Assembly: GCA_963826115.1 (NCBI GenBank)
Contig: CAWGVS010000006.1
Location: 1,088,001 to 1,152,000 of the forward strand
DNA length: 64,000 bases
Direction: 5' to 3'
DNA from: an uncultured Candidatus Rokubacteria bacterium
GTDB lineage: Bacteria > Methylomirabilota > Methylomirabilia > Rokubacteriales > DASRDR01
Position numbers and translations under genes: made by a program. The notes under the pieces were generated by a model. It saw nothing but the letters and a program-made list of their open reading frames with translations. It made no database searches and was not told where the DNA came from. This document shows, one piece after another, positions 513 to 17,176 of this stretch (positions are counted from its first letter, which is position 1; the number at the start of each line of letters is the position of its first letter).

Positions 513-1585
513 GTGGCATGACCACGTTCGACGCGGTCCTGACCGAGGCGGTCTCGAGCGGCGCCTCGGACGTCTACTTCCTGGAGGGCGTCGCGCCCGC
601 CCTGAAGGTGGACGGTCTCGTGAGCCCGGTGCCCGGGACGGGTGCCCTCGACACCGACACCATGCGCGCGGTCCTCGAGCGGCTCCTGCCGATCCGTGAG
701 CGGACGGCCTTCGCGGAGCGGGGCGAGGCGAACCTGTCGCACGTTCACCCGATCCTCGGGCGCTTCCGCGTGAACTGCTACCGGGCGATGGGCGTTTCGG
801 GGGCGGTTCTCCGCCGGGTCAAGACGGAGGTGCCCACGATCGAGGGGCTCGAGCTGCCTCCGCTACTGGGCAGCCTGTCGCTCGAGCGGCAGGGCCTGAT
901 CCTGGTGGTGGGCGCGACGGGCGCCGGCAAATCGACCACCGTGGCGGCGATGCTCCACCATCGGAGCACGCACTCGCGCGGGCACGTCGTCACGATCGAG
1001 GACCCCGTCGAGTACATCCACGCCGCCGACCAGAGCATCGTCTCGCAGCGCGAGGTCGGGATCGACACCGACTCGTACTTGGTGGGGCTGAAGAACGCGC
1101 TCCGGCAGGCACCCGACGTCATCTTCGTCGGAGAGCTCCGCGACTCCGAGACGGCCGCAGTCGCGCTCCACTCGGCGGAGACCGGCCACCTGGTCCTCTC
1201 GACCCTTCACGCGACGAACGCGACGACCGCGGTCGAGCGGCTCCTCCACTTCTTCCAGCCCGAGGTGCGGGCGTCGGTGCTCCTCCAGCTCTCGCTGACC
1301 ATGCGGGCGGTCGTGGCGCAGCGGCTCGTGCCTCGGGTGGAAGGCAAGGGGCGGGCGGCGGCGATGGAGGTCATGCTGGTCACGTCGCGCATCCAGGCCC
1401 TGATCCGTCGGGGCGAGCTGGAGACCATCCGCCAGGCGATCGAGGAGGGCTCGAACGAGGGGCTCCAGACCTTCGACCAGGCCCTGTTCGACCTGGTCCG
1501 GCGGAAGACGATCGGCGCCGACGACGCGCTCCGCTTCGCGGACAGCCCGAACAACCTCCGGCTGCGCATGAAGGGGATCCGGTAG
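509..1585 (+). CDS. pilU: PilT/PilU family ATPase (PilU-like)
   Basis: GATGAGKST Walker [34 protein letters not shown]; lacks AIRNLIRE; overlaps pilT stop. Confidence 0.85.
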
Positions 1586-1719
1586 GCCCGTCAGGGGGGT
1601 TCCTTCCCGCTCGTCCAGGTGGACCGGCGGAGGCTGCGCCAGGCCGACATCATGGGTGACGAGGACGGTGGCCGCGACGACCGCGAGGGCGGCGACCGCG
1701 AGACGCGGGGCCCGCGCCG

Positions 1720-2349
1720 TTACCGCCCGAGGGCCTTCCGGAGGACGGGCAGGAGGCGCTCGGCCAGCATCGCCTGACCCTGCTCGTCGGGGTGGAGCCC
1801 GTCGTACGTGTGGCCCGGCACGACGCCGCCCAGGAAGTCCTCGACGAGGCCCGCGCCCTCCTCCTTGGCGATCTCGCGGAGGTGCCGCCGGTGGCCATCC
1901 CCGGGCACGTTGGGGATGCTGATGTGGAGGAGGATGACGTCGGCCCCGCGGGCCCGGATCCGCTGGGTGATCGTCCGCAGGTTGGCCACGGTGCGCTCGC
2001 GCGGCCACTGGCCGAACATGTCGTTGACGCCGAGCTCGACCACCACGAGCCGGGGACGGTGCTGAAGCACGTCGCGGTCGAGGCGCTGGAGCCCGCCCTC
2101 GGTGGTGTCACCGGAGATGCCCGCGTTGACGACTGGGACGCCCAGCGCCTGCCCGAGCCGGTGGGGAAACGCGAGCTCCGCCCTCAGCCGGTGTCCGTTC
2201 GTGATGCTGTCCCCGAGGAAGACCACGGTCGACCCGGGCGCGGTTGCGCTCGCGCGCGGAGCGCGGCGAGCAGTCCGGGGCCAGAGCGCCCAGGCGGCGC
2301 CGAGGAGAACGAGGAGCCCGAGGACCAGCCAGACGCGCCGCGAGCCCAC
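1720..2349 (-). CDS. SGNH/GDSL hydrolase (arylesterase / acyl-CoA thioesterase TesA-like) with N-terminal membrane anchor
   Basis: FLGDSIT, NAGISGDTT, ELGVND, DGLHP blocks; start re-picked at GTG 2349. Confidence 0.85.
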   Translation of the reverse strand: MGSRRVWLVLGLLVLLGAAWALWPRTARRAPRASATAPGSTVVFLGDSITNGHRLRAELAFPHRLGQALGVPVVNAGISGDTTEGGLQRLDRDVLQHRPRLVVVELGVNDMFGQWPRERTVANLRTITQRIRARGADVILLHISIPNVPGDGHRRHLREIAKEEGAGLVEDFLGGVVPGHTYDGLHPDEQGQAMLAERLLPVLRKALGR

Positions 2350-2445
2350 GCGGTGATCTTGCGGCGATCCGGGCCGCCGGGCAACCGCCCGCCCCGGATC
2401 CGGAGCGACGCCGGAGGCGCGGGACCCGTCTGGTACCATCCGGTC

Positions 2446-3270
2446 ATGGGGCTCCATCCGGGCGGCCCGCCGCTCCTCGACCGCCGGACCGTCCTGGGGA
2501 CGGCGCTCGCGTGGCTCTGTTTCCCGCGGCTTCGGGCGGCGGCGGAGAGCGAGGCGCGCCAGGGCGCCTTCAGCGCGCGGGCGGCGATCCTGTTCGGCGC
2601 CTTCCGGTTCGAGGAGCGCGGGGTGATCGAGGAGACCATCGACCGTGCCGCCGGGCGGTACGAAGTGCGCATCACGGGCAAGGGCACGGAGATGAGCACG
2701 GAGATCGAGTCGAGCGGGACGCTCCGGGGCGGGCGGTGGGCGCCCCTCCGGTTCACGGACCGCTTCCTGGTGTACGGGCGGGAGTCGCGCCTCGAGATCG
2801 TCTACGACCACGACCACCGGCAGGTCCAGTACCGGGGGCGGAGCGAGACGTTCCTCCTCCGCCGCCTCCGCACGACCGACGACACCCTGACGCTGCCGGC
2901 CGAGAGTCACGTGGACGACGTGGTGAGCGCGACCTTGAACTTCGCCGAGGGGCGGTGGCCGGCGGAGAAGGACGGCCGGCTCGTCACCCAGGTCGTTCGC
3001 CGGCAGCGGACGCCTGGCGAGCGTCCGGACGACGCGGAGCGCCGTTACCGCGCGGAGCTCGTGCCCTTCGAGCTGCGGGTCGGCCCGGAGGCGGGCGGCC
3101 GGGCGACGGCGCTCCTCGACATGACGCGCTTCTCGTCGTGGGCGCGGGAGGAAGAGCCGGCGCGCATCGTGTTCGGCGCCGACCGGCGCCCCGAGAGCAT
3201 CACCGCGTCGCTCATCCTGGGCACGAGCCTCGCGATCCGGATGGGCGCCGGCGCGGCCGCGGGGTCGTAG
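2446..3270 (+). CDS. Exported hypothetical protein with Tat-like signal, possibly DUF3108-like beta-rich
   Basis: DRRTVL twin-arginine followed by hydrophobic stretch and AAA; ATG 6 nt after TGnTACCAT. Confidence 0.6.
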   Translation: MGLHPGGPPLLDRRTVLGTALAWLCFPRLRAAAESEARQGAFSARAAILFGAFRFEERGVIEETIDRAAGRYEVRITGKGTEMSTEIESSGTLRGGRWAPLRFTDRFLVYGRESRLEIVYDHDHRQVQYRGRSETFLLRRLRTTDDTLTLPAESHVDDVVSATLNFAEGRWPAEKDGRLVTQVVRRQRTPGERPDDAERRYRAELVPFELRVGPEAGGRATALLDMTRFSSWAREEEPARIVFGADRRPESITASLILGTSLAIRMGAGAAAGS

Positions 3271-3282
3271 ACGCGCGCCGGC

Positions 3283-5556
3283 CTACGCGGCCGGCAGCCG
3301 GATCGTGAAGACGGTGCCCCGCCCGAGCTCCGAGTCGACGTCGATCGTCCCGCCGTAGCTCGAGATGATGCCGGAGACGATCGAGAGCCCGAGCCCCGTC
3401 CCGCTCTCCTTCGTCGTGAAGAACGGCTCGAAGATGCGCCGGCGCACGTCCGGCGGGATGCCGGTCCCGGTGTCCGCGATGGACAGCAGGACCCAGTCGC
3501 CCTCGTAGCGGGTCTCGAGAGTGATGGAGCCGCCCTTCGGCATGGCGTCGACCGAGTTCAGGACGAGGTTGATGAGCGCCTCGCGCAGCTCCGCCCCGCG
3601 CGCCTGGATCGCGGGCACCAGGTCCAGCCGCTGCCGCACCATGATCGGCGCGCCCCGGAGGTCGCTCTGGGACCACCGCGGCCGGACGATCTCGATCGCC
3701 TGCCGGACCACGTCCCGGAGGTCCACCCGCTCGAGCCGGCGGTCCACGTCGCGGCGGGCGAACCGCCGGATGCGGCCAACCGTTTCCACCCCGTCCCGGA
3801 CCGCCTGCTCGATCGTGGCCAGGCCCCGCTGCAGACGCTCGGGCGAGGGCTCGTGGGCGATGAGCTGGGTGTGCCCGAGGATGGCCTGGAGCAGGTTCGT
3901 GAAGTCATGGGCCATGCCCATGGCGAGCTGACCGAGCGCGGACAGCTTCTCGGAGCGGGCGAGCTGCTCCTCCCAGCGCCGCTGCTCGGTGACGTCGCGG
4001 ACGATCAGGAGGAGCCCGATCTCGTCGCGACTACCCCAGGGGATGGGGGAGCACGTGGCGGTGAGGTCCTGGACTGCCCGGTCGCCCTCCTGGAGGCGCA
4101 GCACCGCGGTCCGGCTCGCCCGCGGGGCGGCGAGCACGGGCTCGAGCTGCACCATCACGACCGGCGGCATCGCATCGCCGATGAGCTTGCCGCGCGCCTC
4201 CTCGGCGGTCCGCCCGAACATCCGCTCGGCCGCCGGGTTCCAGGTGACGACCCGGCCCGCGGGGTCCACGGCCACGATGGACTCGGTCGCCGACTCGATC
4301 AGGTTCTCCAGGAACGACTTGGCCTCCGAGAGCTCGCGGTGAAGGTTCGCGTTCCGGACGATGAGGGCGACCGACTCCGAGAACATGCGGAGGAGCTCGC
4401 GCTCGCTCGGATCGAGCTCGCGGGTCGTCTCGACGACCAGCGCGCCGAGGTGCCGGCCCTGCGCCACCAGGGGGAACACGGCGCGCTCGGGCGTTTCGGT
4501 CTCCGCCGGCTCGCCCTGGTCGAGGAGCACCTGGACGCGCTCGTAGCCGCCGCCCTGCTGGAGGTGGTCGGTGATCGCGGCGAGCGTCCGGTCGAGCGCG
4601 GGGTCGACGAGGACCGCCGTGGAGATCCGCCGAAGGATCTCGCCCTGCACGGCCCGCAGCGACTGCTCGGCCGCCAGCCGCGCCGCGGCCGTGAGGAGGG
4701 CCGAGGTTCGCACGGCCGTGACCATGAGATCGGTCACCGGCCGGAGGGGCGCGAGGTCGGCGGCGCCGGGGGCCGGAGCGCGGCGGTGGTAGAGCGCGAG
4801 GTGCGCCGACACGCGGGGGAATCCCTCGTCCACCGCCGGCACGACCAGCGCGGACTCGAAGCCCAGCTCGGCGAGCTCGACAGGCCATGTCAGCGGCCCG
4901 GCCACGCCCGGGCGGACGGCCGCGGGCTCGCGAACGTCGTGTAGCGCCGCGCGCCACGCGGCGGCCACCGCGTCACCTGCCGCGGCGGGGAGCTCGGTGT
5001 GCACGACCGCGATCGGATCCGTGCCGAGGAACGACGCGGCCGCCGCGCCCGTCACGCGCTGGGCCTCGTGGAGCATCGCGCGAAGGAGCCCCTGGAGGTC
5101 GCCGCTCTCCACGGGGTCGCGCCGCTGCGCGAGATCGCGCATCTTGCCGATGAGCGGGGCGAGCGCCACGCCCGGCCGGTCTGCGCGCTGGCGCCGGCGG
5201 GCGACGGCCCGCTCCGCGGCCTCCTGGAGCTCCCGGGGAGCGAACGGCTTCACCAGGTAGTCCATGGCGCCGAACCGCATCGCCCGCTGCACCGTGTCGA
5301 GCGACGCGTAGGCGGTGATCATCACGACCTCGACGCCGGCGTCGACCGCCTTCACGCGCTCGAGCAGCTGGACGCCGTCCATGCGAGGCATCTTCACGTC
5401 CATGAAGATCACGTCCGGGCGGAGCCCGGGCAGGACCGCGAGAACCTCCTCGCCGCTCCCGGCCGTGAAGACCTGGTAGCGCGGCTTGAGGATCATGCGG
5501 ATGGCCTCCCGCGGCCCCTCCTCGTCGTCCACCACCAGCACGCGTGGGTCCATCAT
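3283..5556 (-). CDS. Hybrid sensor histidine kinase (REC-GAF-GAF-PAS-HisKA-HATPase)
   Basis: VVDDE...FMDVKMP...ITAY...VKPF receiver; AHDFTNLL H-box; NLVLNS, DTGTG, FFTTK, GTGLGL. Confidence 0.92.
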   Translation of the reverse strand: MMDPRVLVVDDEEGPREAIRMILKPRYQVFTAGSGEEVLAVLPGLRPDVIFMDVKMPRMDGVQLLERVKAVDAGVEVVMITAYASLDTVQRAMRFGAMDYLVKPFAPRELQEAAERAVARRRQRADRPGVALAPLIGKMRDLAQRRDPVESGDLQGLLRAMLHEAQRVTGAAAASFLGTDPIAVVHTELPAAAGDAVAAAWRAALHDVREPAAVRPGVAGPLTWPVELAELGFESALVVPAVDEGFPRVSAHLALYHRRAPAPGAADLAPLRPVTDLMVTAVRTSALLTAAARLAAEQSLRAVQGEILRRISTAVLVDPALDRTLAAITDHLQQGGGYERVQVLLDQGEPAETETPERAVFPLVAQGRHLGALVVETTRELDPSERELLRMFSESVALIVRNANLHRELSEAKSFLENLIESATESIVAVDPAGRVVTWNPAAERMFGRTAEEARGKLIGDAMPPVVMVQLEPVLAAPRASRTAVLRLQEGDRAVQDLTATCSPIPWGSRDEIGLLLIVRDVTEQRRWEEQLARSEKLSALGQLAMGMAHDFTNLLQAILGHTQLIAHEPSPERLQRGLATIEQAVRDGVETVGRIRRFARRDVDRRLERVDLRDVVRQAIEIVRPRWSQSDLRGAPIMVRQRLDLVPAIQARGAELREALINLVLNSVDAMPKGGSITLETRYEGDWVLLSIADTGTGIPPDVRRRIFEPFFTTKESGTGLGLSIVSGIISSYGGTIDVDSELGRGTVFTIRLPAA

Positions 5557-5580
5557 GTCTGAGCCCCCCTGGGTCTCAGC

Positions 5581-7599
5581 TCACTGACTGGTGCGCGGCA
5601 GCGTCAGGACGAAGCGGATCTCGCCCTCCTGGCCGCCGAGCGTGAGGGTGCCTCCGTGAGCTTCCACGATCTTCTGCGTCACGCCCGGCCCCACGTCGAG
5701 GAGCTTGTCGGACGCGATCGCGAGCGGGCTGAACAGGTGCTCGCGCTCCACGGCCGAGAGCCGCGCGGGCCGCCCCGCGAGTGACAGGCGCACCCGCCCC
5801 GCGTCGTCCGGCGCGGCCTGGAGGTGGATGGCCACGCGGCCGTCGGCGTCGACGCGATTGGCGAGGTACCGGACCAGGTACCCGATCGCCTTGGTGAGCT
5901 GCTCGCGGTCCACCTTGACGACGAGCCCCTCCTGCGGCGCGTAGAGGAGCGCGGTCAGCTGGTCGGCCCGCTCGGGCACGCGGAGCAGGAACAGGGCGGA
6001 ATCCCGCGGCCCCTTGGACCGCTCCAGCCGGACCGACAGCTCCTCCAGCGCGTCGTGGAGGAGCTCCCGGAAGTCGCAGAAGTCGACCTTGTAGTCGCGG
6101 TCGCCCGCCAGCGTGATCAGCTTGTCGACGAGCGAGATCAGGCGCTGCGTGTCCTTCCCGACGACCGACAGGAACGTCTCCCGGAACTCGGGGTCCTCGT
6201 AGCGCTGCGGGAGGAGCTCGAGGAAGGTGTAGATGGACACCAGCGGGTTCTTGATCTCGTCGGTCAGGCGCAGCAGGACCCGGTTGAGGAGGTCCAGGGT
6301 CTGGCTCGTCTGTCGCTCGCGGCTCAGCTGGTGGCGCGGCGTCGGGTCGTCGATGAGCATGACCGCGCCGGCGGGCGCCCCCGCGGCGTCCAGGATTCGC
6401 GAGGTGCTGACCTCGAGGGCGATCTGCTGGCGGGGCAGCTCCACCTCGGCGAGCCTGAGCTCGCGGCCGCCCTGCACGGCCTCGTGGAGGAGGTCGCCGA
6501 GCGGCGAGGGGAGCGCCCGGAGATCCTGGCCGAGGACGTCGCCCAGCGGCAGCTGGAGGATCTGCTCCGCCCGCCGGTTGAAGCGCGTGATCCGGCCGCC
6601 GGCGTCGATCGTGATCGCGCCGCTCTGGAGGTGGGCCAGGACCTGCTCGATGAAGCCGTGCTGGGCCCGGACCGTGTTGAAGAGCGAGATGTCCTCCACC
6701 GCCATCGCGACCTGGCTCGCGAGCATGAAGAGGCGCTCCAGCTCCTCCGCGCCGTAGGGCTGCCCGGTGACGCGCGGCCCGAGGACCAGGATCCCCACGA
6801 GCTTGGCCTGCACCCAGAGGGGCACCGCGACGTCGCCGCCCAGGAGCGCGAGCTCGCGCGCTGCCTCCATCCAGTCCGGCTCGCCCTCGAGCTCCTTCCG
6901 GACCGCGAGCCGCACGTGCTGCCGGAACCAGTCGGCGAGCCCCTCGCCGCTCTCCAGCCGGAGGCGCTCGGCGAGCGCCGGATCGAGCCCCCGGAAGCCG
7001 CGCGGCCGGTACCGGTGCTCGGCATCCAGCAGGAGGAGCGAGACGCGCACCGGCCGCACGAGCTCGCCGACCGCGTCCAGGAAGAACTCGACGACGCGCT
7101 CGATGTCGAAGTGCGCGGCGAGGAGCTTGCCGAGCTCCTTCAGCACCGTGCCCATCGTCCCCGCCCCGCCGGCGCTGGGCGCCGGCGGGGCGGGCGGGAG
7201 CGCCTCGCGCCGCGCGCGGTCGCGCCGGAGCGTGGCGATCTCGAGCTCCAGGCGCCGGACGCGAAGCCCCTGGTCGATCGCCAGGCGGAGCGCGGCGTCC
7301 GGCATGTCCCGCGACAGCGCGAGGTCGCACCGGTCCGCGCCGGGCGGCACCGGATCGCCAGGGTCGAGCAGACCGATGACGAACGGTCGCGGCGCGGCGG
7401 CGGCCGCCGTGGCCAGCTCGTCCGGGTCGATCCGGGTCGAGCCGAAGTCGAGGAGGAGCACGTCGGCCTGGCTCGCGGCGCCCGGCTCGAGGGTCTGGGC
7501 CAGCGATCCGGCGGGCGGGAGGTCGAGGTCACCGTTCAGGAGCCGCCGCAGGCGGGTGGCCAGAGCGGCGTCGCGCGAGAGGACGCGCACCGTCCTCAC
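5581..7599 (-). CDS. Histidine-kinase-like protein with degenerate REC, GAF, PAS and non-canonical H-box/ATP lid (pseudokinase)
   Basis: GTG start overlaps upstream TGA; H-box reads LTDEIKNPL; N/G1/G2 boxes degenerate. Confidence 0.8.
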   Translation of the reverse strand: MRTVRVLSRDAALATRLRRLLNGDLDLPPAGSLAQTLEPGAASQADVLLLDFGSTRIDPDELATAAAAAPRPFVIGLLDPGDPVPPGADRCDLALSRDMPDAALRLAIDQGLRVRRLELEIATLRRDRARREALPPAPPAPSAGGAGTMGTVLKELGKLLAAHFDIERVVEFFLDAVGELVRPVRVSLLLLDAEHRYRPRGFRGLDPALAERLRLESGEGLADWFRQHVRLAVRKELEGEPDWMEAARELALLGGDVAVPLWVQAKLVGILVLGPRVTGQPYGAEELERLFMLASQVAMAVEDISLFNTVRAQHGFIEQVLAHLQSGAITIDAGGRITRFNRRAEQILQLPLGDVLGQDLRALPSPLGDLLHEAVQGGRELRLAEVELPRQQIALEVSTSRILDAAGAPAGAVMLIDDPTPRHQLSRERQTSQTLDLLNRVLLRLTDEIKNPLVSIYTFLELLPQRYEDPEFRETFLSVVGKDTQRLISLVDKLITLAGDRDYKVDFCDFRELLHDALEELSVRLERSKGPRDSALFLLRVPERADQLTALLYAPQEGLVVKVDREQLTKAIGYLVRYLANRVDADGRVAIHLQAAPDDAGRVRLSLAGRPARLSAVEREHLFSPLAIASDKLLDVGPGVTQKIVEAHGGTLTLGGQEGEIRFVLTLPRTSQ

Positions 7600-10085
7600 C
7601 GCGCCACCTCCGGCCGGATGGTGTCCGCCACCGCGCCGACGAGGGCGGGGAACTGCACGACGAACGTGGTGCCGAGCCCGGCCGGTCCGGGGTCCGCCCA
7701 GAGCGCCGCGCGGTGCGCGTCCGCGATGCTGCGGCAGATCGCGAGGCCGAGGCCCGTCCCGCTCGACTTCGTCGTGAAGAACGGGTCGAACACGCGGCCG
7801 AGGTCCTCGCGGGGGATGCCGGGGCCGGTGTCGGTGACGCGGACCGTGACCAGGCCGCGGTCCGCGCGCTCGCGGTCGGCCCTCACGGTCACCGTGAGGG
7901 TGCCGCCCGCCGTCATCGCCTCCAGCCCGTTCAGGAACAGGTTCAGGAAGAGCTGCTTCAGCTGGTCGAGCTCGCCCAGGACCGGCGGCAGGTCGGGCTC
8001 GATCTCGACCACCGAGCGCACCCGGCGGCGATCGGCCTCCCCGCGCAGGAGGTCGAGCGTCTCGGCCAGCGGCACCTGGAGGTCGAGCGGCCGGAGCGGG
8101 AACGCGCTCGGAACCGCCAGCGCCCGGAGCCGGGCCAGGAGCTGCTCGATGCGGTGGATCTCCTTCACGGCGACCTTGGCGAAGGTCGAGCGGAACTCGT
8201 GGTCGTCGGCCCGCTCGGGCAGGAGCTCGGCGAACGTCTTGATGGCCACCAGCGGGTTCCGGATCTCGTGGGCGATGCCGGTGGCCATGGCGCCGAGCGC
8301 CGAGAGACGGTCGGTCCGCCGCTTGTCCTCCTCGAGCGCCTTGAGCCGCGAGTGGTCGTTCAGGACCGCGATCGCCCCGCTGACCTCGCCCTTGTGGTCG
8401 TGGAGGGCCGAGGTGTGCACGACCAGCGGGAGGACGCGCCCTTCGGGGTGGCTGACCGTCACCTCCGTCTCGGCCTCCGACCGCTCCACGATGCTCGACC
8501 GCAGGACGGCGCGGATGGCGGGGTCCAGCACGTCGAGCGACCGCCCCACCACGCGCCCCGCCTCGATCCCCAGGATCCGCTCCGCCGCGGGATTGAGCGT
8601 CGTGACGACGCCGTCGGCCCTTGCGGCGATGACGCCCGAGTCCATGCGGCCGAGGAGCCGCTCGTTGTACTCCTTGATCGAGACGATCTCGTGGTAGAGC
8701 TGCGCGTTCTTGAGCCCGATGGCCAGCTCGCTCGCGAGGGTCTCCAGGAGATCGAGCTCGTCGCCGTAGAAGGAGTCTCCCGACAGCTTGGGCCCGGCCA
8801 GGATCACGGCCATCAGCCGGCCGTCCCGGACCGGTACCGCCAGCTCGGCGCCCCAGGCCCGCAGGTCCCGCAGCACCGCGCGGGCGTCGACGGCGCCCGC
8901 GCGGGCCCCGACGTGGTCCCGGACGAGCGCGGCCGTCCCGTCGGAGAGCTCCTGGATCAGCGGGCTCCCGCCGGGCATCGGCTCCGCGGGCCACGCGACA
9001 CTCGGGTCGACGTGGCGGGTGACCAGCGGGGCGAACGCGTCGCGGTCCCCGATCCGGACGAGGATCGCGAGGCTCTCCAGGTGGAGCGCCCGGTCGATCA
9101 GGTCGGCCATGGCCGTCGCCACCCGCGCGGGGTCGGCGAACGTACCCATGGCCCGGCTCCCCTCGCGGACGAGCGCGCGCGCGTCGTAGGCGGGCCGGTA
9201 GAGGTAGCGGTCGGCGAGCCGTCGCATGCGCGGCGCGAACCCGAGGAACAGGGCGGAGGCGGCCAGACCGAGGATCACGGCGCCCGCCGGCGACAGCGTG
9301 GGGTTGGCCTCCGGGACCAGCGCGTCGAGCAGGACCTCGCCGCCGATGAGGAGCGACGCGGTCAGGAGCCAGCCCGCGGCGTAGGCCGCCGACCGGCTGA
9401 CGACCACCCGCACGTCCATGAGCCGGTGGCGGACGATCGAGTGGGCAGTGAAGCCGAGCCAGAGGAGCGTGAAGTAGGGGCCGTACACGCCGAGCCGCGA
9501 GGACCCGGTCACGAGCGGCACCACGACGCCCAGCGTGAGCGCACCCGCGGCGGTCAGTCCCGCGCCGAGGAAGACGTAGTGGAGCTGGGCCCGCGCGAAT
9601 CCCGTCGTGTGCCGGAGCTTCCCGGCCAGGTAGGCCAGGGCCCACGCCGAGCACAGGATCATGTACGCGCCGAGGAGGCGGAACGCGGGCCCGTACACCG
9701 GCTGGAGGTAGTCCGGCGCCTCGCGGCGGACGTCGGCGACGATCCAGGGCGAGAACGCCAGGCCCGACATGAAGAGACCCAGGATCGTCACGGCCTGGGC
9801 GAGCGCGGGCCGTCGGGACGCCGGCCGCGGGAAGGCCACCGCGAAGTGGGCGAACGTTACCGGAACCAGCGCGGCGGTCGCCCACAGGATGCGCACCACC
9901 ACGAGCACGACCGCCGGGTCGGACAGGCTCCGGCGGATCCCGACCAGCATGCCCCACGCCGCGAGGGTCGTCGCGAAGGCGGCGAACCACCGATTGACCG
10001 GGCGGCGCGGGTTCCGCACCCAGACCACGACCGCCAGCGCCACCTCGATCAGCGCGACCAGGAAGAGGCCGACGATCGCCGTCAT
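7596..10085 (-). CDS. Membrane sensor histidine kinase (HisKA_7TM-like N-terminus, GAF, PAS, HisKA, HATPase)
   Basis: About 8-9 hydrophobic helices beginning RNPRRPVNRWF; AHEIRNPL; NLFLNG, DTGPG, FFTTK, GTGLGL. Confidence 0.92.
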   Translation of the reverse strand: MTAIVGLFLVALIEVALAVVVWVRNPRRPVNRWFAAFATTLAAWGMLVGIRRSLSDPAVVLVVVRILWATAALVPVTFAHFAVAFPRPASRRPALAQAVTILGLFMSGLAFSPWIVADVRREAPDYLQPVYGPAFRLLGAYMILCSAWALAYLAGKLRHTTGFARAQLHYVFLGAGLTAAGALTLGVVVPLVTGSSRLGVYGPYFTLLWLGFTAHSIVRHRLMDVRVVVSRSAAYAAGWLLTASLLIGGEVLLDALVPEANPTLSPAGAVILGLAASALFLGFAPRMRRLADRYLYRPAYDARALVREGSRAMGTFADPARVATAMADLIDRALHLESLAILVRIGDRDAFAPLVTRHVDPSVAWPAEPMPGGSPLIQELSDGTAALVRDHVGARAGAVDARAVLRDLRAWGAELAVPVRDGRLMAVILAGPKLSGDSFYGDELDLLETLASELAIGLKNAQLYHEIVSIKEYNERLLGRMDSGVIAARADGVVTTLNPAAERILGIEAGRVVGRSLDVLDPAIRAVLRSSIVERSEAETEVTVSHPEGRVLPLVVHTSALHDHKGEVSGAIAVLNDHSRLKALEEDKRRTDRLSALGAMATGIAHEIRNPLVAIKTFAELLPERADDHEFRSTFAKVAVKEIHRIEQLLARLRALAVPSAFPLRPLDLQVPLAETLDLLRGEADRRRVRSVVEIEPDLPPVLGELDQLKQLFLNLFLNGLEAMTAGGTLTVTVRADRERADRGLVTVRVTDTGPGIPREDLGRVFDPFFTTKSSGTGLGLAICRSIADAHRAALWADPGPAGLGTTFVVQFPALVGAVADTIRPEVAR

Positions 10086-10094
10086 GGGGCGGGT

Positions 10095-11324
10095 CTAGTT
10101 GTCTTCCGGGCGGCCCAGGACGACCGCCGAGTGGGTCGGGCCGATGGCTCGCGAGGTGACGAGCACACGGTTCACCCGCGCGGGCCGGCCGCGGCCGGGC
10201 ACGTAGTCGAGGTCGCACCCCGCGGCGGGGATGTCGTGGTTCATCGTCGGCGGCACGTGCTGCTCGGCGAGCGAGAAGCAGGCCGCCACGACCTGGAGGG
10301 CGCCGCCGGCCGCGAACGGCTGACCGATCATTCCCTTGATCGACGTCACCGGGATGCTGTACGCGTGCCGCCCGAGCACCGCGCGGTACGCGGCGCTCTC
10401 CGCCCGGTCGTGTCGCGGCACGCCGCCCCCGTGTGCGTTGACGTGATCGAGCTCCCCGGGGTCGAGCCGCGCCTCGTGGAGGGCGCCCCGCATGGCGGCC
10501 TGGAGCGACACCCCCTCGGGATCGACGGTCCGGAGATCCAGTCCGTCGGTGCCGCTCCCGTACCCGAGCACCTCCGCGTAGACGTGCGCCCCGCGCGCCC
10601 GCGAGTGCTCGAGGTCCTCCAGGACATACATGCCGGCGCCCTCGCCCAGGACGGAGCCGTCGCTCAGCGCGTCGTACGGACGGAGCGCCTGGGCCGGGGG
10701 CCCGCTCCAGCGGGACAGCCATCCGAGCTTGCCCCACGCCGCGTGCACCGAGGTCGCGAGCGGCGCGTCGGCGGCGCCGGCCAGGGCCCCGACGATCTGC
10801 CCCGCCCCGATCTGCGCGCACGCCCACTGGATCGCGTCCACGCCGGAGGCGCAGCCCGACCCGAGCGTCATGGTCTGCCCGCGGAGACCCAGGTCGACGG
10901 CCGCGTAGTTCGTGAGGGCATGGCCGATGCTCTCGACCACCGTCGAGGCGTCGCGCCGGCGCATGGGGCGACCCTGGATCCGCTCGAGGACCTCCTGGAA
11001 CTCCGCCACCGCGCTGGCGCCGCTCGCGACGCAGACGGCGAATCCGCTGGCGGCCCGGAGCCCCGGCAACCCCGCGTCGTCGTACGCCATGCGCGCGGCC
11101 GCCATGCCGAACTGCGCGAACCGTCCCGCGGGAGTGAGGCGCTCGCCGGCCGGCTCGAAGCCCTTGACCTCCGCCGCGACCTGACAGGCGAAGGGCGCCG
11201 GGTCGAACCGGGTGATCGGCCCCACGCCCAGCGCCCCCTCGCGAAGACCGCGCCAGAACGCCTTCACGCCGATGCCGATCGGGGTGACGGCGCCCAGGCC
11301 GGTGATGGCGACCCGGCGTCTCAC
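10095..11324 (-). CDS. FabF-like beta-ketoacyl synthase, atypical active site
   Basis: RRVAITGLG start, GCASG Cys, NAHG His, but KGMIGQP in place of GH. Confidence 0.88.
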   Translation of the reverse strand: MRRRVAITGLGAVTPIGIGVKAFWRGLREGALGVGPITRFDPAPFACQVAAEVKGFEPAGERLTPAGRFAQFGMAAARMAYDDAGLPGLRAASGFAVCVASGASAVAEFQEVLERIQGRPMRRRDASTVVESIGHALTNYAAVDLGLRGQTMTLGSGCASGVDAIQWACAQIGAGQIVGALAGAADAPLATSVHAAWGKLGWLSRWSGPPAQALRPYDALSDGSVLGEGAGMYVLEDLEHSRARGAHVYAEVLGYGSGTDGLDLRTVDPEGVSLQAAMRGALHEARLDPGELDHVNAHGGGVPRHDRAESAAYRAVLGRHAYSIPVTSIKGMIGQPFAAGGALQVVAACFSLAEQHVPPTMNHDIPAAGCDLDYVPGRGRPARVNRVLVTSRAIGPTHSAVVLGRPEDN

Positions 11325-11575
11325 CCCGGCGCCTGCTGGACGCGGCTCTCGACCAGGGCGACCATGTCCGCCACCGTCTTGAGCTTCGTCAGCTCCTCCT
11401 CGGGTACCTCGATGTCGAACTTACGCTCGACGGAAATGGCCAGCTCGACCGCGTCGAGGGAGTCGAGACCGAGGTCCTCGACCAGCCGGGCTTCCGGCAC
11501 CAGTTGCTCCGCCGGCAGTCCGAGCCGCGCCGCCATGATTTCTCGAAGCCCGCTCGCGACGTCTTGCGTCGCCAC
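11321..11575 (-). CDS. acpP: Acyl carrier protein
   Basis: 84 aa acidic protein with DLGLDSLDAVEL phosphopantetheine site. Confidence 0.93.
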   Translation of the reverse strand: MATQDVASGLREIMAARLGLPAEQLVPEARLVEDLGLDSLDAVELAISVERKFDIEVPEEELTKLKTVADMVALVESRVQQAPG

Positions 11576-12805
11576 TCATGCCTCCCCGCGGCTGAGGACC
11601 AGGATCGAGTTGGTCCCGCCGAACGCAAATGAGTTGGACATCGCCACCCGGATCGGCGCGCGGCGAGCCTGGTTCGGGACGTAGTCCAGGTCGCACGCCG
11701 GATCGGGCGTCGTGTAGTTGATCGTCGGGGGGATGATTCCGTGGTGGAGAGCGAGCGCCGTCGCGATCGCTTCCACGCCCCCCGCGGCGCCCACGAGGTG
11801 GCCCGTCATCGACTTGATCGAGCTGATCGCCAGACGCCGGGCGTGCTCGCCGAACACGGTCTTGATGGCCTCCGTCTCGTGCTGATCGTTCAGCGGCGTC
11901 GACGTGCCGTGGGCGTTGATGTAGTCAACCGCCTCCGGCTTGATTTTCGCGTCGGCCAGGGCGAGCCGCATGGCGCGGGCCGGCCCGTTGGCCGACGAGG
12001 CCGTCGGGTGGTTGGCGTCCGCCGAGAGGCCGTATCCGAGGACCTCCGCGTAGATCCGGGCGCCCCGCGCCCGGGCGGCTTCCAGTACCTCGAGCACGAG
12101 GATGCCCGCGCCCTCCGCCAGGACGAACCCGTCGCGGTCCTTGTCGAAGGGACGGCTCGCGGTTTGCGGCGAGTCGTTCCGGGTCGACAGGGCGTGGATC
12201 GCCGAGAAGCCCGCGACCACCACCGGGTGGATGAGCGAGTCCGTTCCGCCCGCCAGCATCACGTCGGCGTCCCCGCGCTGGATGGCCCGGAAGGCGTCGC
12301 CGACGGCCTGGCTGCTCGCCGCGCACGCCGTGGTCGGGCTGAAGATGGGCCCGCGAGCGACCGTCCGCATGGACACCCATCCGGCGGCCATGTTGGGCAG
12401 GCTTCCCGGGAGCGCGTAGGCGCTCACCCCCAGCATGCCCTCGCGCTGGAGCATGTCCCACGAGTTGAGGAGCATCGGGACCCCGCCCATGCCGGTGCCG
12501 ATTGACACGCCGACCCGCTCGTTCTGACCGTCGACCTTGACTCCCGAGTCCGTGAGCGCCGCCTGCGCGGCGATGAGCGCGTAGTGGATGAACACGTCGG
12601 TCCGCACGATGTCGCGGCGGGGCAGGTGGGCCGCGGTGTCGAAGTCGGCGATCTCACCGGCGATCTGGCTGGGATAGGGGGAGGGGTCGAACCGGGTGAT
12701 CCGTCGGACCCCGCTTCGCCCCTGGGTCAGGCCATCCCAGAAGGCGTCGAGGCCGACGCCTACGGGTGAGACGACGCCCATACCTGTGACGACAACGCGC
12801 CGCAA
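11576..12805 (-). CDS. fabF: 3-oxoacyl-ACP synthase II
   Basis: TACAAS, YINAHGTST, KSMTGHLVGAAG, SNSFAFGG; TTG start with AAGGAGG SD. Confidence 0.93.
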   Translation of the reverse strand: MRRVVVTGMGVVSPVGVGLDAFWDGLTQGRSGVRRITRFDPSPYPSQIAGEIADFDTAAHLPRRDIVRTDVFIHYALIAAQAALTDSGVKVDGQNERVGVSIGTGMGGVPMLLNSWDMLQREGMLGVSAYALPGSLPNMAAGWVSMRTVARGPIFSPTTACAASSQAVGDAFRAIQRGDADVMLAGGTDSLIHPVVVAGFSAIHALSTRNDSPQTASRPFDKDRDGFVLAEGAGILVLEVLEAARARGARIYAEVLGYGLSADANHPTASSANGPARAMRLALADAKIKPEAVDYINAHGTSTPLNDQHETEAIKTVFGEHARRLAISSIKSMTGHLVGAAGGVEAIATALALHHGIIPPTINYTTPDPACDLDYVPNQARRAPIRVAMSNSFAFGGTNSILVLSRGEA

Positions 12806-12955
12806 TACGCCTCCTTGGGACGGTCTATGGTGCGTGAAAGTCCGACGTGACGCTAAGTTACACCCGGTCTCTCATGTGAGGCGGCAAAGAAAATTGTGCC
12901 ACCGGCCGAGGAGACGTGCACGCTCCAATCGTCGCGCGCGATCCCGCCAGACCGG

Positions 12956-14026
12956 TCAGCGGCCGCGGGAGGGCTCGCCGTCCCGGGCGCGGCCCAGCTC
13001 GGCGAGGAGGTCCCGGTGCTCGGCGCAGCCGATCACGCCCACGTCGGGTCGGGCGCGGGAGCCTTCGACCCATCGGCGGAGGGTGGCCCGACGGGCCCGC
13101 GCGGCAGCGACCGCCTCCCGGGGGAGGGCGCCGGACTCCAGGGCGCGTCCGACCGTGGCGATCGCGTCGTCCCGGGTGCTCGCCTCGCGGCACACCAGGG
13201 CGAGGTCCCCCCCCGCGGCGAGGAAGCGCGCCGCCGCGCTCCCGACACCCCACTGGTTCCGGACCGCCGCCATCTCGAGATCGTCGCTCACGACGAGCCC
13301 GTCGAACGCGAGTCGGCCGCGGAGGAGGCCCCCGATGATCCCGGCCGAGAGCGAGGCGGGCGACTCCGCGTCGAGGGCCGGATACCGGACGTGGTTCACC
13401 ATGACCGCGGGGCAGCCGGCGGCAAGCGCCCGGCGGAACGGCACGAGCTCGGTCCGCTCGAGGTCGTCGAGGGACGCGTCGACCTCCGGGAGGACGAGGT
13501 GGGAGTCGAGCGCCGTCCGTCCGTGACCCGGGAAGTGCTTGGCCACGGGGATCAGGCCTTCCTCGAGAACGGCCCGGATGAAGGCGGCGCCGCAGGCGGC
13601 GACCGTCTCGGGGTCATCCGCGTACGCCCGGTCGCCCACGACCACGCTGGCCGGATCGGTCGAGCAGTCGAGGACCGGTGTGAGCCCCGAGTCGAACCCC
13701 GCCGCCCGCAGCTCGCGCGCCATCGCGCGCCCCACGCGTCCGGCCACCGCCGGATCGCCCAGCCGGCCGATGGCGGCGGCGGGCGGGAAGCGCGTGAACG
13801 GGGGAGGGAGGCGGTGGACGCGGCCGCCCTCGTGGTCGACGAGCACCAGCACGTCCGGCCCGTATCCCCGCGCGGCTGCGGTGAGGGCGAGGACGACGTC
13901 GAGGTTCGGGCAGTTCCGCGCGAACAGGACGATCCCGCCCAGCCCCTCGCCCAAGGCCAGCTCTGCGACGTCCTCGGGGACCGCCGTCCCCTCGAAGCCG
14001 AGCGCCAGGAGCTCGCCCGCGCTCAT
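12956..14026 (-). CDS. nagZ: Beta-N-acetylhexosaminidase (GH3)
   Basis: DHEGGRV, KHFPGHG..DSH, SDDLEM motifs. Confidence 0.92.
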   Translation of the reverse strand: MSAGELLALGFEGTAVPEDVAELALGEGLGGIVLFARNCPNLDVVLALTAAARGYGPDVLVLVDHEGGRVHRLPPPFTRFPPAAAIGRLGDPAVAGRVGRAMARELRAAGFDSGLTPVLDCSTDPASVVVGDRAYADDPETVAACGAAFIRAVLEEGLIPVAKHFPGHGRTALDSHLVLPEVDASLDDLERTELVPFRRALAAGCPAVMVNHVRYPALDAESPASLSAGIIGGLLRGRLAFDGLVVSDDLEMAAVRNQWGVGSAAARFLAAGGDLALVCREASTRDDAIATVGRALESGALPREAVAAARARRATLRRWVEGSRARPDVGVIGCAEHRDLLAELGRARDGEPSRGR

Positions 14027-14033
14027 GCGCTCC

Positions 14034-15272
14034 TCATCCGGCCGGCTCGCGGGCGGGGGGCGGGGGGAGCCACGACCTGACGAACGGGACCAGGAGGAGA
14101 CCCGGCAGCGAGGCGAGAAACGTGATCGCGAAGTAGGTGCCGTAGCCCCACTTCTCCGTGCCGAGGCCGCTGACTGCGCCGGCCAGGCGGCCGGTGAAGG
14201 AGAAGAGGGACGACAGGAACGCGTACTGGAGCGTGGCCCGCTCCGGATCGCAGACCGCCAGGAAGAAGCCGAGGAACGCGGCGGTCCCGAGGCCGCCCGA
14301 GAACGAGTCGATCATGGACGCGGCGTAGAGGGCCGGCCACGGCAGCTTCCAGAGGGCGACGGCGGCGTAGCCGAGGTTCGAGATCGCCTGGGGCAGCCCG
14401 AGCAGCCAGAGCGCGGTCAGCGTGCCGTAGCGCTGCATGATCGCGCCGCCCGCCAGCGCGCCCGCGATCGAGAGACCGATCCCGAGCGCCGTGGGCACCA
14501 GGCCGATCTCGAGGAGTGACCGCCCCTGGTCCACCCAGAAGGGCTTGACCATCGGGCCGATGGCGAACTCGCCGAGCTTGTACGTGAGGACGAACAGGAT
14601 CAGCGGGACGGCTCGCCACGTTCCGATCCAGCCCACGAACGGGGCGAGCCACTGCTGCCGCGCCTCGGCGGGGACGTCGAGGCGCGGGATCCGCCGGACC
14701 GCGAGGCCCATCGCGGCGAACACGACCGCCGCGCCGCCGAAGAGGACGTTCCACGGGAGCCAGTGGGCGAGCACGACCATGCCGCTCCCGATCAGGACCA
14801 GCGCCACGCGATACGCGGAGGCGCGCACCCCGTTCGCCGGGCCCTGATCCTCGCGACCCACCAGCGCCACCGTGTAGGCGTCGATCGCCATGTCCTGGGT
14901 GGCCGAGGCGATGGTGAGCACCAGGATCAGCGCGAACAGGACGTTCAGGCTGGTCGCGGGGTCGGGCAGGGCGAGCAGGGCGACCGCCGCGGCGACCACG
15001 AGCATGGCGCCCGTCACCCAGTTGCGGCGGTCGCCAAAGCGCTGGACGAGCGGCGACCACAGAAACTTCAGCGAGAACGGCAGCTCGAGGAGTCTCAGCC
15101 CGCCGATGGCCCGGAGCGAGGTGCCGTGGAGGCGCAGGTAGACGGGCAGCACCTCCCAGAGGATGCTCACCGGGCTGCCCTCGATGAAGTAGAGGAGCCC
15201 GACGACCTTGAGCTTGGACCGCGACGCCTCGGGCAGCCGGCTGGCGCCGAGCAGCGTCCACAGGAGGCGCAT
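14034..15272 (-). CDS. ampG: AmpG-like muropeptide MFS transporter
   Basis: LKFLWSP, SATQDMAIDAY motifs; about 12 TM; adjacent to nagZ; start re-picked after TACAAT box. Confidence 0.85.
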   Translation of the reverse strand: MRLLWTLLGASRLPEASRSKLKVVGLLYFIEGSPVSILWEVLPVYLRLHGTSLRAIGGLRLLELPFSLKFLWSPLVQRFGDRRNWVTGAMLVVAAAVALLALPDPATSLNVLFALILVLTIASATQDMAIDAYTVALVGREDQGPANGVRASAYRVALVLIGSGMVVLAHWLPWNVLFGGAAVVFAAMGLAVRRIPRLDVPAEARQQWLAPFVGWIGTWRAVPLILFVLTYKLGEFAIGPMVKPFWVDQGRSLLEIGLVPTALGIGLSIAGALAGGAIMQRYGTLTALWLLGLPQAISNLGYAAVALWKLPWPALYAASMIDSFSGGLGTAAFLGFFLAVCDPERATLQYAFLSSLFSFTGRLAGAVSGLGTEKWGYGTYFAITFLASLPGLLLVPFVRSWLPPPPAREPAG

Positions 15273-15343
15273 CGCGCGCATTGTACCCGACGGGGGCGGT
15301 CGGCCTTCCGAACTGCCGGTCGCCACGGCGCCGCGGGAGGTCG

Positions 15344-17176
15344 CTAGGGTCCCGGGCGCTCCCGCGGGATATCGAGGACGAACGTGGCGCCTCCGCCGGG
15401 CGTGTCCTCCAGCCGGAGGTTGCCCCCGTGCGCTTGCAGGATCTCGCGCGACACGGCCAGGCCCAGCCCCGTGCCCTCACCGGGCGGCTTCGTGGTGAAG
15501 AACCAGTCGAAGATCTTCACCCGCATGTCGGCCGGGATGCCGGGCCCGTCGTCGGCCACCTGGATCTCGACGGTCTCGCCACGCCGCCGCGTCCGCACGG
15601 TGAGGTTCCGGCCCTTGCCGGCGCTGTCCATCGCCTGTCGGGCGTTTCCCATGAGGTTCATCAGCACCTGGCCGAGCCGGTGCGGATCCGCCGTCACCCG
15701 CGGGAGATCGGCCTGGAAGTCCCCGACGAGCTTGATCCCCGCCACCGAGCACTGGGGACGCTCCAGATCCATCGACTGCTTGATCAGCACGTTCAGGTCG
15801 ACGGCCTCGAACGTGGGCGGGCGCGGCTTCGCCATCGTCAGGAGCTCGCGCACCAGCCGCTGCGCGCGCTGGGCGGCCAGAATGATGTGGCCGGACCGGT
15901 CGCGGCTCGTGCCGTCCGCGCCCGGATCCGCCTGGATCATCTGCGCGAGCGTCATCAGGGCGGTCAGTGGCGCGTTGATGTCGTGGACGAGCCCCGCCAT
16001 GCTCTGGCCGAAGGTCGCCAGCCGCTCCACCTCGACCAGGTGGGCCCGGGCCTGGCTGACCTGGTCCTGGAGGGCGCCCACGACGGCCGCCCGGTCCTCG
16101 CGGGCAAGCGCCACCCCGATCTGACCGGCCAGCCCTTCCAGGACCCTCAGCTCCTCGGGGGGCAGGTCGAACGCCGGATCGTCCCACGACAGCGCCAGGA
16201 GACAGCGCGGGCTGTCCGCGCCGGCCCGGATCGGCAGGAGGAGCCACGGCAGCGTCGAGTGGCGGAGCCACGTTGGCGCTCCCACGAGCGGGAGGCCGGG
16301 GCGCCAGGTCGGCCGACCGGCCTCGAGGAACCGTGTCAGCTCGTCCGTCAAGGGGAGCGTGGTGCCCTCGAGCGCGACCTGGTCGAGCGGTCCCGTGTCC
16401 CACCCGGCCACGGCGGCGAGGCTCGTGCTGTCGGCGGCCGGCGCCAGGAACGCGAGGGCCTGGCTCGGGCGGAACGCGGTCGCCAGCCGCGGCATCACCG
16501 CGCGGAGCGCGCGGGCCGGCTCGGCGCCGGTGACGAACGCGTCGACGACGGCCAGGAGCGCCTCCACGGCGCGCGTGCGGGCCTGGGCGCGCTGGAGGAG
16601 GCTCGTCTGGTCGATCGCGAGCGCCGCGGTGCTGGCGAACAGACGCAGGACCGCGAGGTCGCTCGACGTGAAATGGGGGCGGTCGGCCAGCCGGTTCGCG
16701 TTGAGGACGCCGACCACCCGACCGCCGACCTCGAGCGGGACCGACACGGCCGACTGGATGCGGCCGCCCTTCGGCACGAGGTTCGGGAAGCGCGAGAGAT
16801 CGTCGCCCTCGCTCAGGAGGACGGGGCTGCCGGTCTGGGCGACCCAGCCGGCCACGCCCTCGCCCAGGCGGGAGCGCTGCTGCCAGGCCTCGGCCTCGCG
16901 GGCGCGGGTCGAGGACGCCACCCTCAGCTCGTCGCCTTCGACCAGCATCAGGGAGGCCTCGTCCGCGCTCAGCGAATCGGCCGCCCCGTCGACGACGTGG
17001 CGGAACAGCTCGTCCGCCGTGACCTTGTTGGAGAGGAGGCTGAGTGTCGCCTCCTGGACCCGGAGGATCTCGTCCCATCGCTCGCCCCCATGGCCAGGGC
17101 CTGGGGCTGCCGGGGGGGCCGGTCCACCGGGCTCCGCCGACGGGTGGCGGGCCAGGGCCCCCCGAGAGGCGGACAA
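15344..17176 (-). CDS. Cytoplasmic GAF-GAF sensor histidine kinase
   Basis: GEGVAGWVA GAF signature; VHDINAPL; NLMGNA, DDGPG, FFTTK, GTGLGL; start uncertain. Confidence 0.88.
   Translation of the reverse strand: MSASRGALARHPSAEPGGPAPPAAPGPGHGGERWDEILRVQEATLSLLSNKVTADELFRHVVDGAADSLSADEASLMLVEGDELRVASSTRAREAEAWQQRSRLGEGVAGWVAQTGSPVLLSEGDDLSRFPNLVPKGGRIQSAVSVPLEVGGRVVGVLNANRLADRPHFTSSDLAVLRLFASTAALAIDQTSLLQRAQARTRAVEALLAVVDAFVTGAEPARALRAVMPRLATAFRPSQALAFLAPAADSTSLAAVAGWDTGPLDQVALEGTTLPLTDELTRFLEAGRPTWRPGLPLVGAPTWLRHSTLPWLLLPIRAGADSPRCLLALSWDDPAFDLPPEELRVLEGLAGQIGVALAREDRAAVVGALQDQVSQARAHLVEVERLATFGQSMAGLVHDINAPLTALMTLAQMIQADPGADGTSRDRSGHIILAAQRAQRLVRELLTMAKPRPPTFEAVDLNVLIKQSMDLERPQCSVAGIKLVGDFQADLPRVTADPHRLGQVLMNLMGNARQAMDSAGKGRNLTVRTRRRGETVEIQVADDGPGIPADMRVKIFDWFFTTKPPGEGTGLGLAVSREILQAHGGNLRLEDTPGGGATFVLDIPRERPGP

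Follow-up and report, generated by a model that had tools for sequence, protein, structure and literature searches.

A FabF-derived ketosynthase gene paired with a HisKA_7TM histidine kinase gene in soil bacteria: a candidate module for making and sensing a lipid-like molecule

Single condensing enzymes of the thiolase fold are known to make bacterial signals. DarB and PpyS of Photorhabdus are such enzymes; both are of the FabH or β-ketoacyl-acyl carrier protein synthase III (KAS III) type, and their signals are read by LuxR-type solos. CqsA is a pyridoxal phosphate-dependent enzyme. In the CqsA/CqsS system, the synthase gene is paired with that of a polytopic membrane histidine kinase which binds a hydrophobic acyl-derived ligand; a recent report places CAI-1 in the membrane domain of CqsS and describes CqsA docking on the kinase (bioRxiv 10.64898/2026.05.05.722802). 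The phc operon of Ralstonia quorum sensing has the order phcB-phcS-phcR-phcQ, where phcR encodes a receiver (REC) domain together with a kinase domain (PMC8578825). Here, we analyze a cluster of six minus-strand genes, fabF2, acp2, KS2, HK7TM, pseudokinase, and REC-kinase, in a 64,000-nucleotide (nt) stretch of DNA from an uncultured Candidatus Rokubacteria bacterium (GenBank contig CAWGVS010000006.1, positions 1,088,001 to 1,152,000; hereafter the window, with positions counted from its first letter). The cluster centers on an atypical ketosynthase (KS) gene, KS2 (10095..11324, minus strand), and on the gene that follows it, HK7TM (7596..10085, minus strand), which encodes a membrane histidine kinase. 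No published description of this KS–kinase pair was found in a limited literature search, in which the HisKA_7TM family (PF16927) was named only in two domain censuses, and an earlier note on this DNA, which had not recognized the module as described, is to that extent borne out. The KS2–HK7TM pair suggests an undescribed system that would make and sense a lipid-like molecule.

The locus resembles PhcBSRQ in that one operon holds the genes of a lipid-signal synthase (operon and synthase both being putative in our case), a membrane sensor kinase, a soluble protein with REC and kinase domains, and a further REC protein; the PhcR-type protein lacks a DNA-binding domain, and the Ralstonia signal is a fatty-acid derivative (PMC8578825). 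It differs in that the Ralstonia synthase is not a ketosynthase but a methyltransferase with a 3-hydroxy acyl group as its substrate, and in that the available part of the report describes no pseudokinase with an Asp in place of the phospho-acceptor His (PMC8578825). CqsS differs from HK7TM in having six helices and a C-terminal receiver. PhcS is not known to be a HisKA_7TM kinase. KS2 differs from DarB and PpyS in being derived from FabF/KAS II and in being paired with a membrane kinase. The earlier statement that the signals of stand-alone ketosynthases are read by LuxR solos is too narrow, because synthases encoded beside membrane sensor kinases are already known from CqsA/CqsS and PhcBSRQ.

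The two genes of the pair stay together. KS2 relatives were gathered as a first set of 20 loci and a second set of 47 more. Across 91 KS2-type loci, a tally that leaves out one row (the fabF2 paralogue of L039, mis-typed by a motif filter), the two genes are adjacent and co-oriented, as would be asked of a synthase and its receptor, in 87, with HK7TM directly downstream of KS2 on the same strand. The pair is found at 15 of 15 loci in the family of the window, at 50 of 51 in other families of its order (the remaining contig ends 78 nt after KS2), at three of four in the lineage of G251, and at 19 of 21 in the class of G252, where the flank was covered for only 1.4–1.5 kb. It therefore spans Methylomirabilota/Rokubacteria, a class titled Armatimonadia, and a third lineage (G251), soil bacteria of at least three phyla, with median gaps of 30–110 nt between the two genes and with KS2 identities between the lineages that keep the adjacency falling to about 37–42%. 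In the second set of 47, HK7TM comes right after KS2 in all but one locus, at a contig end. The genes around the pair are less constant. Seven of the ten loci in the genus keep the whole order AmpG-NagZ-fabF2-acp2-KS2-HK7TM-pseudokinase-REC-kinase, as do, from AmpG through REC-kinase, three of four loci from other genera of the family, the fourth contig ending inside HK7TM. Three other families of the order contributed six loci, in which KS2 is 40–44% identical; these lack fabF2 and acp2 and retain KS2, the pseudokinase, the REC-kinase, and HK7TM, the last often in two copies. The adjacency had first been proposed for a KS–acyl carrier protein (ACP)–KS cassette joined to kinases; it holds for KS2 and HK7TM, whereas fabF2 and acp2 accompany them only in the family of the window. 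As far as gene order tells, the conserved unit is KS2 with HK7TM, usually followed by the pseudokinase with its REC-like head and the REC-kinase; it is smaller than first supposed and far more widely distributed.

The phylum was represented by 251 genomes, which were scanned with a profile. With 498 bits, the score of the weakest KS2 row, taken as KS2 level, hits at this level occurred in 16 of 20 genomes of the window's own family (f1, with G000 not counted), 57 of 159 of family f2 (a denominator that includes G105 and G241, neither with such a match), one of one in f3 and in f5, and none of one in f4. Among 68 genomes of other orders (including G064 and G074), no protein of the KS2 clade was recognized; the two top scorers, from the sister order f6, were placed by tree and motif, by which they group with ordinary FabF, and the other 66 genomes were placed by score. 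The best matches in these orders score up to 493 bits and the weakest KS2 scores 498, so the bit score by itself does not separate the two groups. A wider profile search with generic KS motifs returned ordinary FabFs in 78 of 80 loci and two informative ones, L062 (from a record titled uncultured Armatimonadia) and L070, both of which carry the KS2–HK7TM pair outside the phylum. In the phylum of L070 and G251, the KS occurs in 4 of 79 genomes, all of one order; in the class of L062 and G252, 49 of 79 genomes score 470 bits or more, all 20 loci that were read have the Gln signature described below, and 18 of these 20 have an HK7TM match within the 1.5 kb covered. Judged by these counts, the module is patchy in its distribution and appears to move as a unit.

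Close relatives of the window also show how the module is lost. In one genome (G004, locus L051), KS2 and the three kinases have been cleanly deleted, and fabF2, acp2, gene X, and the hydrolase gene (the latter two described below) persist; a second (G008, L050) retains a 118-codon KS2 stump and HK7TM only; and in a third (G013, L049) the locus is fragmented, with a TGA inside KS2. These three loci are a stepwise loss of the module and amount to natural knock-outs. The survival of fabF2-acp2 in L051, where the conserved block upstream of fabF2 is also kept, is what would be expected if a secondary-metabolite or spare fatty acid synthase (FAS) cassette merely lay beside an unrelated multi-kinase locus. 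This argument is limited to fabF2 and acp2; since KS2 and HK7TM are adjacent in 87 of 91 loci from three lineages, an independent function is excluded for KS2, though not for the other two genes, and for the cluster as a whole we think it highly improbable.

KS2 can be aligned over its whole length to FabF structures (1e5m, E 9e-69). It falls below the cut-off of the fabF equivalog model TIGR03150 (311.9 versus 493.75 bits) and forms a clade of its own. In a maximum-likelihood tree of 112 rows (quick search, LG+C20, unrooted, with long branches for L062 and L070), the 67 kinase-linked KS proteins form one side of a branch with a Shimodaira–Hasegawa-like approximate likelihood ratio test (SH-aLRT) value of 99, separate from the housekeeping FabFs, from fabF2, and from 24 FabFs that belong to other phyla; a KS phylogeny against housekeeping FabF, which the earlier note had called for, thus sets KS2 apart. 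Database entries give these proteins generic names under Rokubacteria or Methylomirabilota tags, and the protein clusters of gene X indicate the same phylum. Aligned to the FabF structures, KS2 keeps Cys158, His298, and Lys330 and has Gln335 at the second catalytic His, so it lacks the Cys-His-His triad of FabF; fabF2 and all 21 FabF-type rows keep this His. The Cys, the first His, and the Lys are invariant in all 67 kinase-linked rows, and the position of the second His is occupied by Gln in 51, His in 14, and Asn in two. The HGTSTP motif has become HGGGVP in the window's genus and HGN[SGA][LM]P in most KS2 relatives. Gln, His, and Asn at the fourth position are, by their side chains, all hydrogen-bond donors, as in Cys-His-Asn ketosynthases. 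Because the Cys-His-Lys set is invariant and the fourth-position donor conserved, KS2 looks catalytically active, an enzyme rather than a relic. A pairing of fabF2 and KS2 as the ketosynthase and chain-length factor (CLF) of a type II polyketide synthase (PKS) was rejected: both keep the active-site Cys, which CLFs lack, usually with Gln in its place; therefore KS2 is not a CLF partner. No cyclase, aromatase, or ketoreductase was found among the Pfam-scanned open reading frames (ORFs) of window positions 1–20 kb, as had been claimed for the cyclases and reductases of an aromatic type II PKS.

The altered residues bear on another explanation, in which KS2 would be a metabolic sensor or regulatory subunit that loads acyl or malonyl groups from ACP and tunes the kinases by direct contact, reporting the flux of fatty-acid synthesis, with catalysis in the service of sensing and not of production. 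Changes on the malonyl side (HGTSTP altered, the second His replaced by Gln) are consistent with such a role, as are the order of KS2 and HK7TM, held across phyla, and the 9 nt, devoid of a Shine-Dalgarno sequence, that separate the two genes in the window. Docking of a synthase on its kinase has a precedent in CqsA–CqsS (bioRxiv 10.64898/2026.05.05.722802), and natural fusions of KS domains to signaling domains exist (PocR-GGDEF-KS in P0046 and P0047, PilZ-KS in P0059). However, those fused domains have the canonical Cys-His-His and not the motifs of KS2, no KS–kinase fusion was present among the best 120 of 248 longer proteins, the full Cys-His-Lys set with its fourth-position donor is that of a working condensing enzyme, and the recurrent biosynthetic partners (a B12-radical S-adenosylmethionine enzyme, or rSAM, in some lineages and fabF2/acp2 in others) argue for a product. 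A complex prediction for KS2 and residues 1–470 of HK7TM returned a score of 0.00, which speaks neither way. On balance we hold the sensor-subunit role to be improbable.

The fusions deserve mention in their own right. Besides the three proteins named above, further canonical KS fusions occur among P0070, P0094, P0110, and P0041; fusions of B12-binding and radical SAM domains to KS, about 1250 residues long, form many clusters, and methyltransferase–KS fusions occur too. All KS fusions that were found, whether with GGDEF, PilZ, B12-rSAM, or methyltransferase domains, carry Cys-His-His and not KS2-clade motifs. KS domains wired to c-di-GMP signaling look unstudied.

HK7TM has a HisKA_7TM match of 43.7 bits (cut-off 28.6), HisKA at 42.6 bits, HATPase_c at 88.6 bits, and a PAS domain, together with a GAF-like region whose match of 18–20 bits is below the Pfam cut-off. 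With the 7TM region over the gathering score, HisKA with its His, and HATPase_c, the protein belongs to PF16927. Of 90 aligned rows, 87 retain the H-box His and three have a gap there. The next gene, the pseudokinase (5581..7599, minus strand), encodes REC-like, GAF, PAS, and dimerization and histidine phosphotransfer (DHp) regions, with a HisKA match and no HATPase_c match in Pfam. In 48 of 51 rows, Asp stands for the phospho-acceptor His within an EIKNPL box that is invariant apart from this; of the ATP-binding boxes, G1 is missing and G2 degenerate, and these findings uphold its first description as a pseudokinase. The His is kept at this position only in L062, L211, and L212, and the f6 homologue is a complete kinase. 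The N-terminus of the pseudokinase resembles REC by hhalign (probability 95.4%, E 1.7e-8, with Asp46 on the acceptor Asp), with no REC match in Pfam (E 0.01); the conserved Lys of REC is lost in the window's family and kept in others. DivL-type pseudokinases, which contain PAS domains, lack the phospho-acceptor His, and act within multi-kinase pathways, are the nearest known parallel. The protein described here differs in having Asp for the His, degenerate ATP-lid boxes, and a receiver-like N-terminal domain. The REC-kinase (3283..5556, minus strand) has the order REC-GAF-PAS-HisKA-HATPase_c with its receiver N-terminal; 44 of 45 rows retain the H-box His, and the HisKA match of 24.4 bits is just under the cut-off of 26.9. 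The "three-kinase cascade" of the earlier description therefore becomes one membrane kinase and two proteins with REC or REC-like heads, one of which is catalytically dead, because the middle protein lacks both the His and G1.

In the window, whose G+C content is about 72%, the six ORFs give clean translations. The minus-strand order first described was recovered from the ORF map and the translations, and all five junctions were confirmed when re-read from the sequence: 0 nt between fabF2 and acp2, which starts right after the fabF2 stop codon; a GTGA overlap of acp2 and KS2; TAG, 9 nt, and ATG between KS2 and HK7TM; a second GTGA overlap of HK7TM and the pseudokinase; and TGA, 24 nt, and ATG before the REC-kinase. 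The fabF2 gene (11576..12805, minus strand) starts with TTG, 7 nt downstream of AGGAGG, and encodes a second, full-strength FabF paralogue with the Cys-His-His triad and the HGTSTP motif. It passes the TIGR03150 equivalog test (573.4 versus 493.75 bits) and forms its own clade (SH-aLRT 100) nested in ordinary FabF in the 112-row tree. The acp2 gene (11321..11575, minus strand) encodes a dedicated acyl carrier protein (TIGR00517, 73.9 bits, cut-off 70.45). Both are confined to the family of the window, and ACP2 matches none of the 51 loci of other families.

A housekeeping role for the cluster in fatty acid synthesis was rejected, in agreement with the earlier claim, because contig C5 of the same genome has the customary arrangement fabD-fabG-acpP-fabF (fabG 306.5 bits, above 297.75; acpP 121 bits; fabF 661 bits); within positions 1–20 kb of the window, the main ORFs include no fabD, fabG, fabH, fabZ, or plsX, again as first noted. 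Elsewhere in this genome, a region at C6:371992-376892 (loci L003, L004, L006, and L013) holds three to four KS-family genes and an ACP-like gene. It may encode a type II PKS or an aryl-polyene-like pathway, and some 10 kb away, at C6:386938, there is a weak B12-rSAM match.

Upstream of fabF2 is a conserved block of about 90 nt (12806..12895, minus strand), the probable promoter/operator of the presumed transcription unit, consisting of an AT-rich box, about 20 nt, an 18-nt box, and a Shine-Dalgarno sequence. It is kept in ten members of the genus, including the genome without KS2. The block fits neither the sigma-70 nor the sigma-54 consensus; a promoter and terminator scan of 1500–17500 gave no site of either kind, the sigma-54 consensus matched 17 times against 36 expected by chance and never upstream of fabF2, and neither the block nor window positions 1–20 kb had an Rfam match at E 0.1. 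A TGGCAC...TTTGC stretch 5' of fabF2 was rejected as a sigma-54 site, its spacing being wrong and its sequence not conserved. The block may serve a regulator as its operator.

A seventh gene of the neighborhood, gene X (2446..3270, plus strand), was missed in the first description; it is convergent with the REC-kinase gene, tail to tail. Its 274-residue product, which has a twin-arginine-type signal in most orthologues, matches no Pfam or NCBIfam family and is modeled as an all-beta fold (pLDDT 86.9, predicted TM-score 0.80). The best structural match is Brucella DUF1849 (6ntr_A; Z 12.1, root-mean-square deviation 3.8, 189 residues), and against 6ntr Foldseek gives E 9e-6, its TM-scores being 0.44–0.48. 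Like EipB/DUF1849 and LolA/LolB, X is modeled as an open beta-barrel or spiral exported by a predicted signal. It differs from them in having no sequence-family match; Z is 12.1 for 6ntr and 7–9 for LolA/LolB, a range also reached by unrelated outer-membrane barrels. The module has X as a neighbor in 13 f1 loci and, with X and KS2 in divergent orientation, in 41 of 51 loci from other families. Only in the family of the window is X itself flanked by the gene of a membrane-anchored, TesA-like SGNH/GDSL hydrolase (1720..2346, minus strand, the start being uncertain within 2346–2457), with a Pfam Lipase_GDSL_2 match of 99.1 bits (cut-off 32.9) and TesA PRK10528 as its nearest NCBIfam family (81.5 bits, below 270). 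The 396-codon "GDSL" ORF at 1720–2910 is really about 1720–2346, its first ~150 codons being the antisense of X. This antisense frame is open in the high-GC DNA, with the effect that tblastn reports spurious matches in other genomes and that the hydrolase ORF seems about 190 codons longer than it is. Further up on the strand of the six-gene cluster, Pfam identifies a glycoside hydrolase family 3 (GH3)/NagZ gene, an AmpG-like major facilitator superfamily (MFS) gene, and a GAF kinase gene.

Other lineages surround the pair with other genes. Armatimonadia-type loci have a gene Y, the KS, HK7TM, a HisKA protein without HATPase_c, a REC-HATPase-REC protein, and a convergent B12-rSAM gene. Y, which lies upstream of the KS, has no Pfam match and gives outer-membrane-barrel leads with a weak PorV match only; it is not similar to X (hhalign probability 0.2%). 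In L070, the KS is immediately preceded by an rSAM gene, has a FadL/TodX gene nearby, and is followed by the gene of a REC-HTH_8 regulator. The KS2-linked B12-rSAMs of these two phyla are orthologous (44% identical over 559 residues), and their nearest named families, all below cut-off, include lipid and hopanoid enzymes. The genome of the window has no orthologue of this enzyme, its best match, at C6:386938, being 25% identical (E 1e-15). In the sister order f6, a canonical KS is accompanied by an OleD/thioester-reductase-like short-chain dehydrogenase/reductase, an ICMT/PEMT-type membrane methyltransferase, HK7TM, a complete kinase, and a REC-HD-GYP-type regulator; the cluster (L212 of G031, positions 3031–11881, and also L211 of G032) has electron transfer flavoprotein (ETF) genes 5' and recA, a PilT-like ATPase gene, and recX after it. 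This f6 variant may preserve the ancestral, fuller pathway. From their predicted domains, the accessory genes vary by lineage and all point to hydrophobic molecules.

The same partners invite an explanation by membrane-lipid homeostasis: the 7TM kinase would sense the state of the bilayer, as DesK senses its thickness, and KS2, together with fabF2/acp2, the rSAM, or the methyltransferase, would alter the bulk acyl chains, the product being a structural lipid. It gains from fabF2 and acp2 passing housekeeping equivalog cut-offs, from the envelope neighbors (the AmpG-like MFS protein, NagZ, the LolA/DUF1849-like X, and the TesA-like hydrolase), from the lipid and hopanoid enzymes among the below-cut-off relatives of the linked rSAM, and from the f6 cluster with its PEMT/ICMT-type methyltransferase and ETF genes. 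Yet a single KS does not remodel bulk lipids, the cluster has no transcription factor to close the loop, and the patchiness of the module (57 of 159 genomes in f2, four of 79 in the phylum of G251) and its loss in L050 and L051 are unusual for core homeostasis. A tight, KS-first gene order is, moreover, more typical of synthase–receptor operons. Homeostasis is accordingly a possible explanation that we consider rather unlikely.

The explanation that we prefer, tentatively and at somewhat less than an even chance, is that KS2 makes an acyl-derived ligand which the membrane domain of HK7TM reads, as in CqsA/CqsS or PhcBSRQ. We favor it because it explains an intact KS tied to a kinase across phyla, the patchy, unit-like distribution, and the partners suited to hydrophobic molecules. 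From the observed anatomy, residues, adjacency, and clade we infer that KS2, as a FabF-derived condensing enzyme, would use acyl- and malonyl-thioesters to make or complete a small hydrophobic molecule of acyl origin. In the window's family, fabF2 and acp2 would supply a dedicated acyl-ACP; in other phyla, the B12-rSAM enzyme would modify the KS2 product. The polytopic HisKA_7TM domain would bind this product in the membrane and set the kinase activity, and the phosphoryl group would pass to the receiver and receiver-like domains heading the two following proteins. The pseudokinase could serve as a modulator or scaffold, like DivL, and the REC-kinase could hand the signal on to a regulator whose gene lies outside the cluster. 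Handling, release, or transport of the hydrophobic molecule through the envelope might fall to X and the TesA-like hydrolase, and in other lineages to the FadL/PorV-like barrels; the molecule may act between cells or within one.

Several points weigh against this synthase–receptor explanation. A single KS cannot by itself define a molecule, and most Rokubacteriales loci have no ACP, reductase, or thioesterase of their own, so KS2 would need the housekeeping ACP. The Gln signature is not universal, the second His being kept in 14 of 67 KS2 rows, and no output regulator, DNA-binding or otherwise, is encoded in the window's cluster. AmpG, NagZ, and the LolA-like fold, taken as an envelope context, fit lipid homeostasis equally well. 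A search for sequencing runs listed 20 sources of DNA reads and none of RNA, and the gene calls and synteny come from tblastn, Pfam, and ORF maps on uncultured assemblies. The synthase–receptor, homeostasis, and KS-as-sensor models can also overlap.

A bolder form of the synthase–receptor explanation would make KS2 and HK7TM a new, widespread class of lipid autoinducer synthase and receptor, with KS2 perhaps docking on the kinase and X exporting the bound signal; it would be the first cell–cell signaling chemistry proposed for Rokubacteria and Armatimonadota, and we treat it as doubtful. The Rokubacteria/Methylomirabilota and most Armatimonadota are abundant soil bacteria. To our knowledge, the former have no cultured members, and we know of nothing on mutual or membrane sensing in either group. 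A two-gene core kept across phyla is a concrete, testable handle, one enzyme and one receptor; a ligand for HisKA_7TM would open a whole receptor family, and the KS2 clade, if this explanation is true, would bring a branch of KAS II descent to the few ketosynthases that make signals.

Some further features were seen near the module. PilT/T2SSE-type ATPase genes recur close to it in several lineages (window positions 39–1585, plus strand; L038-L041, L211, and L212), and prepilin-type (N_methyl) genes stand beside it in the Armatimonadia-type loci L245 and L254; a pilus-related output may be hinted at. At window positions 17910–19259 (minus strand), a 449-codon ORF has a C-terminal cobalamin adenosyltransferase domain preceded by about 250 unexplained residues. 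In L046, a gene for a UvrD/PD-(D/E)XK helicase-nuclease (13571–17575, plus strand) carries an intein, with Intein_splicing and Hint matches.

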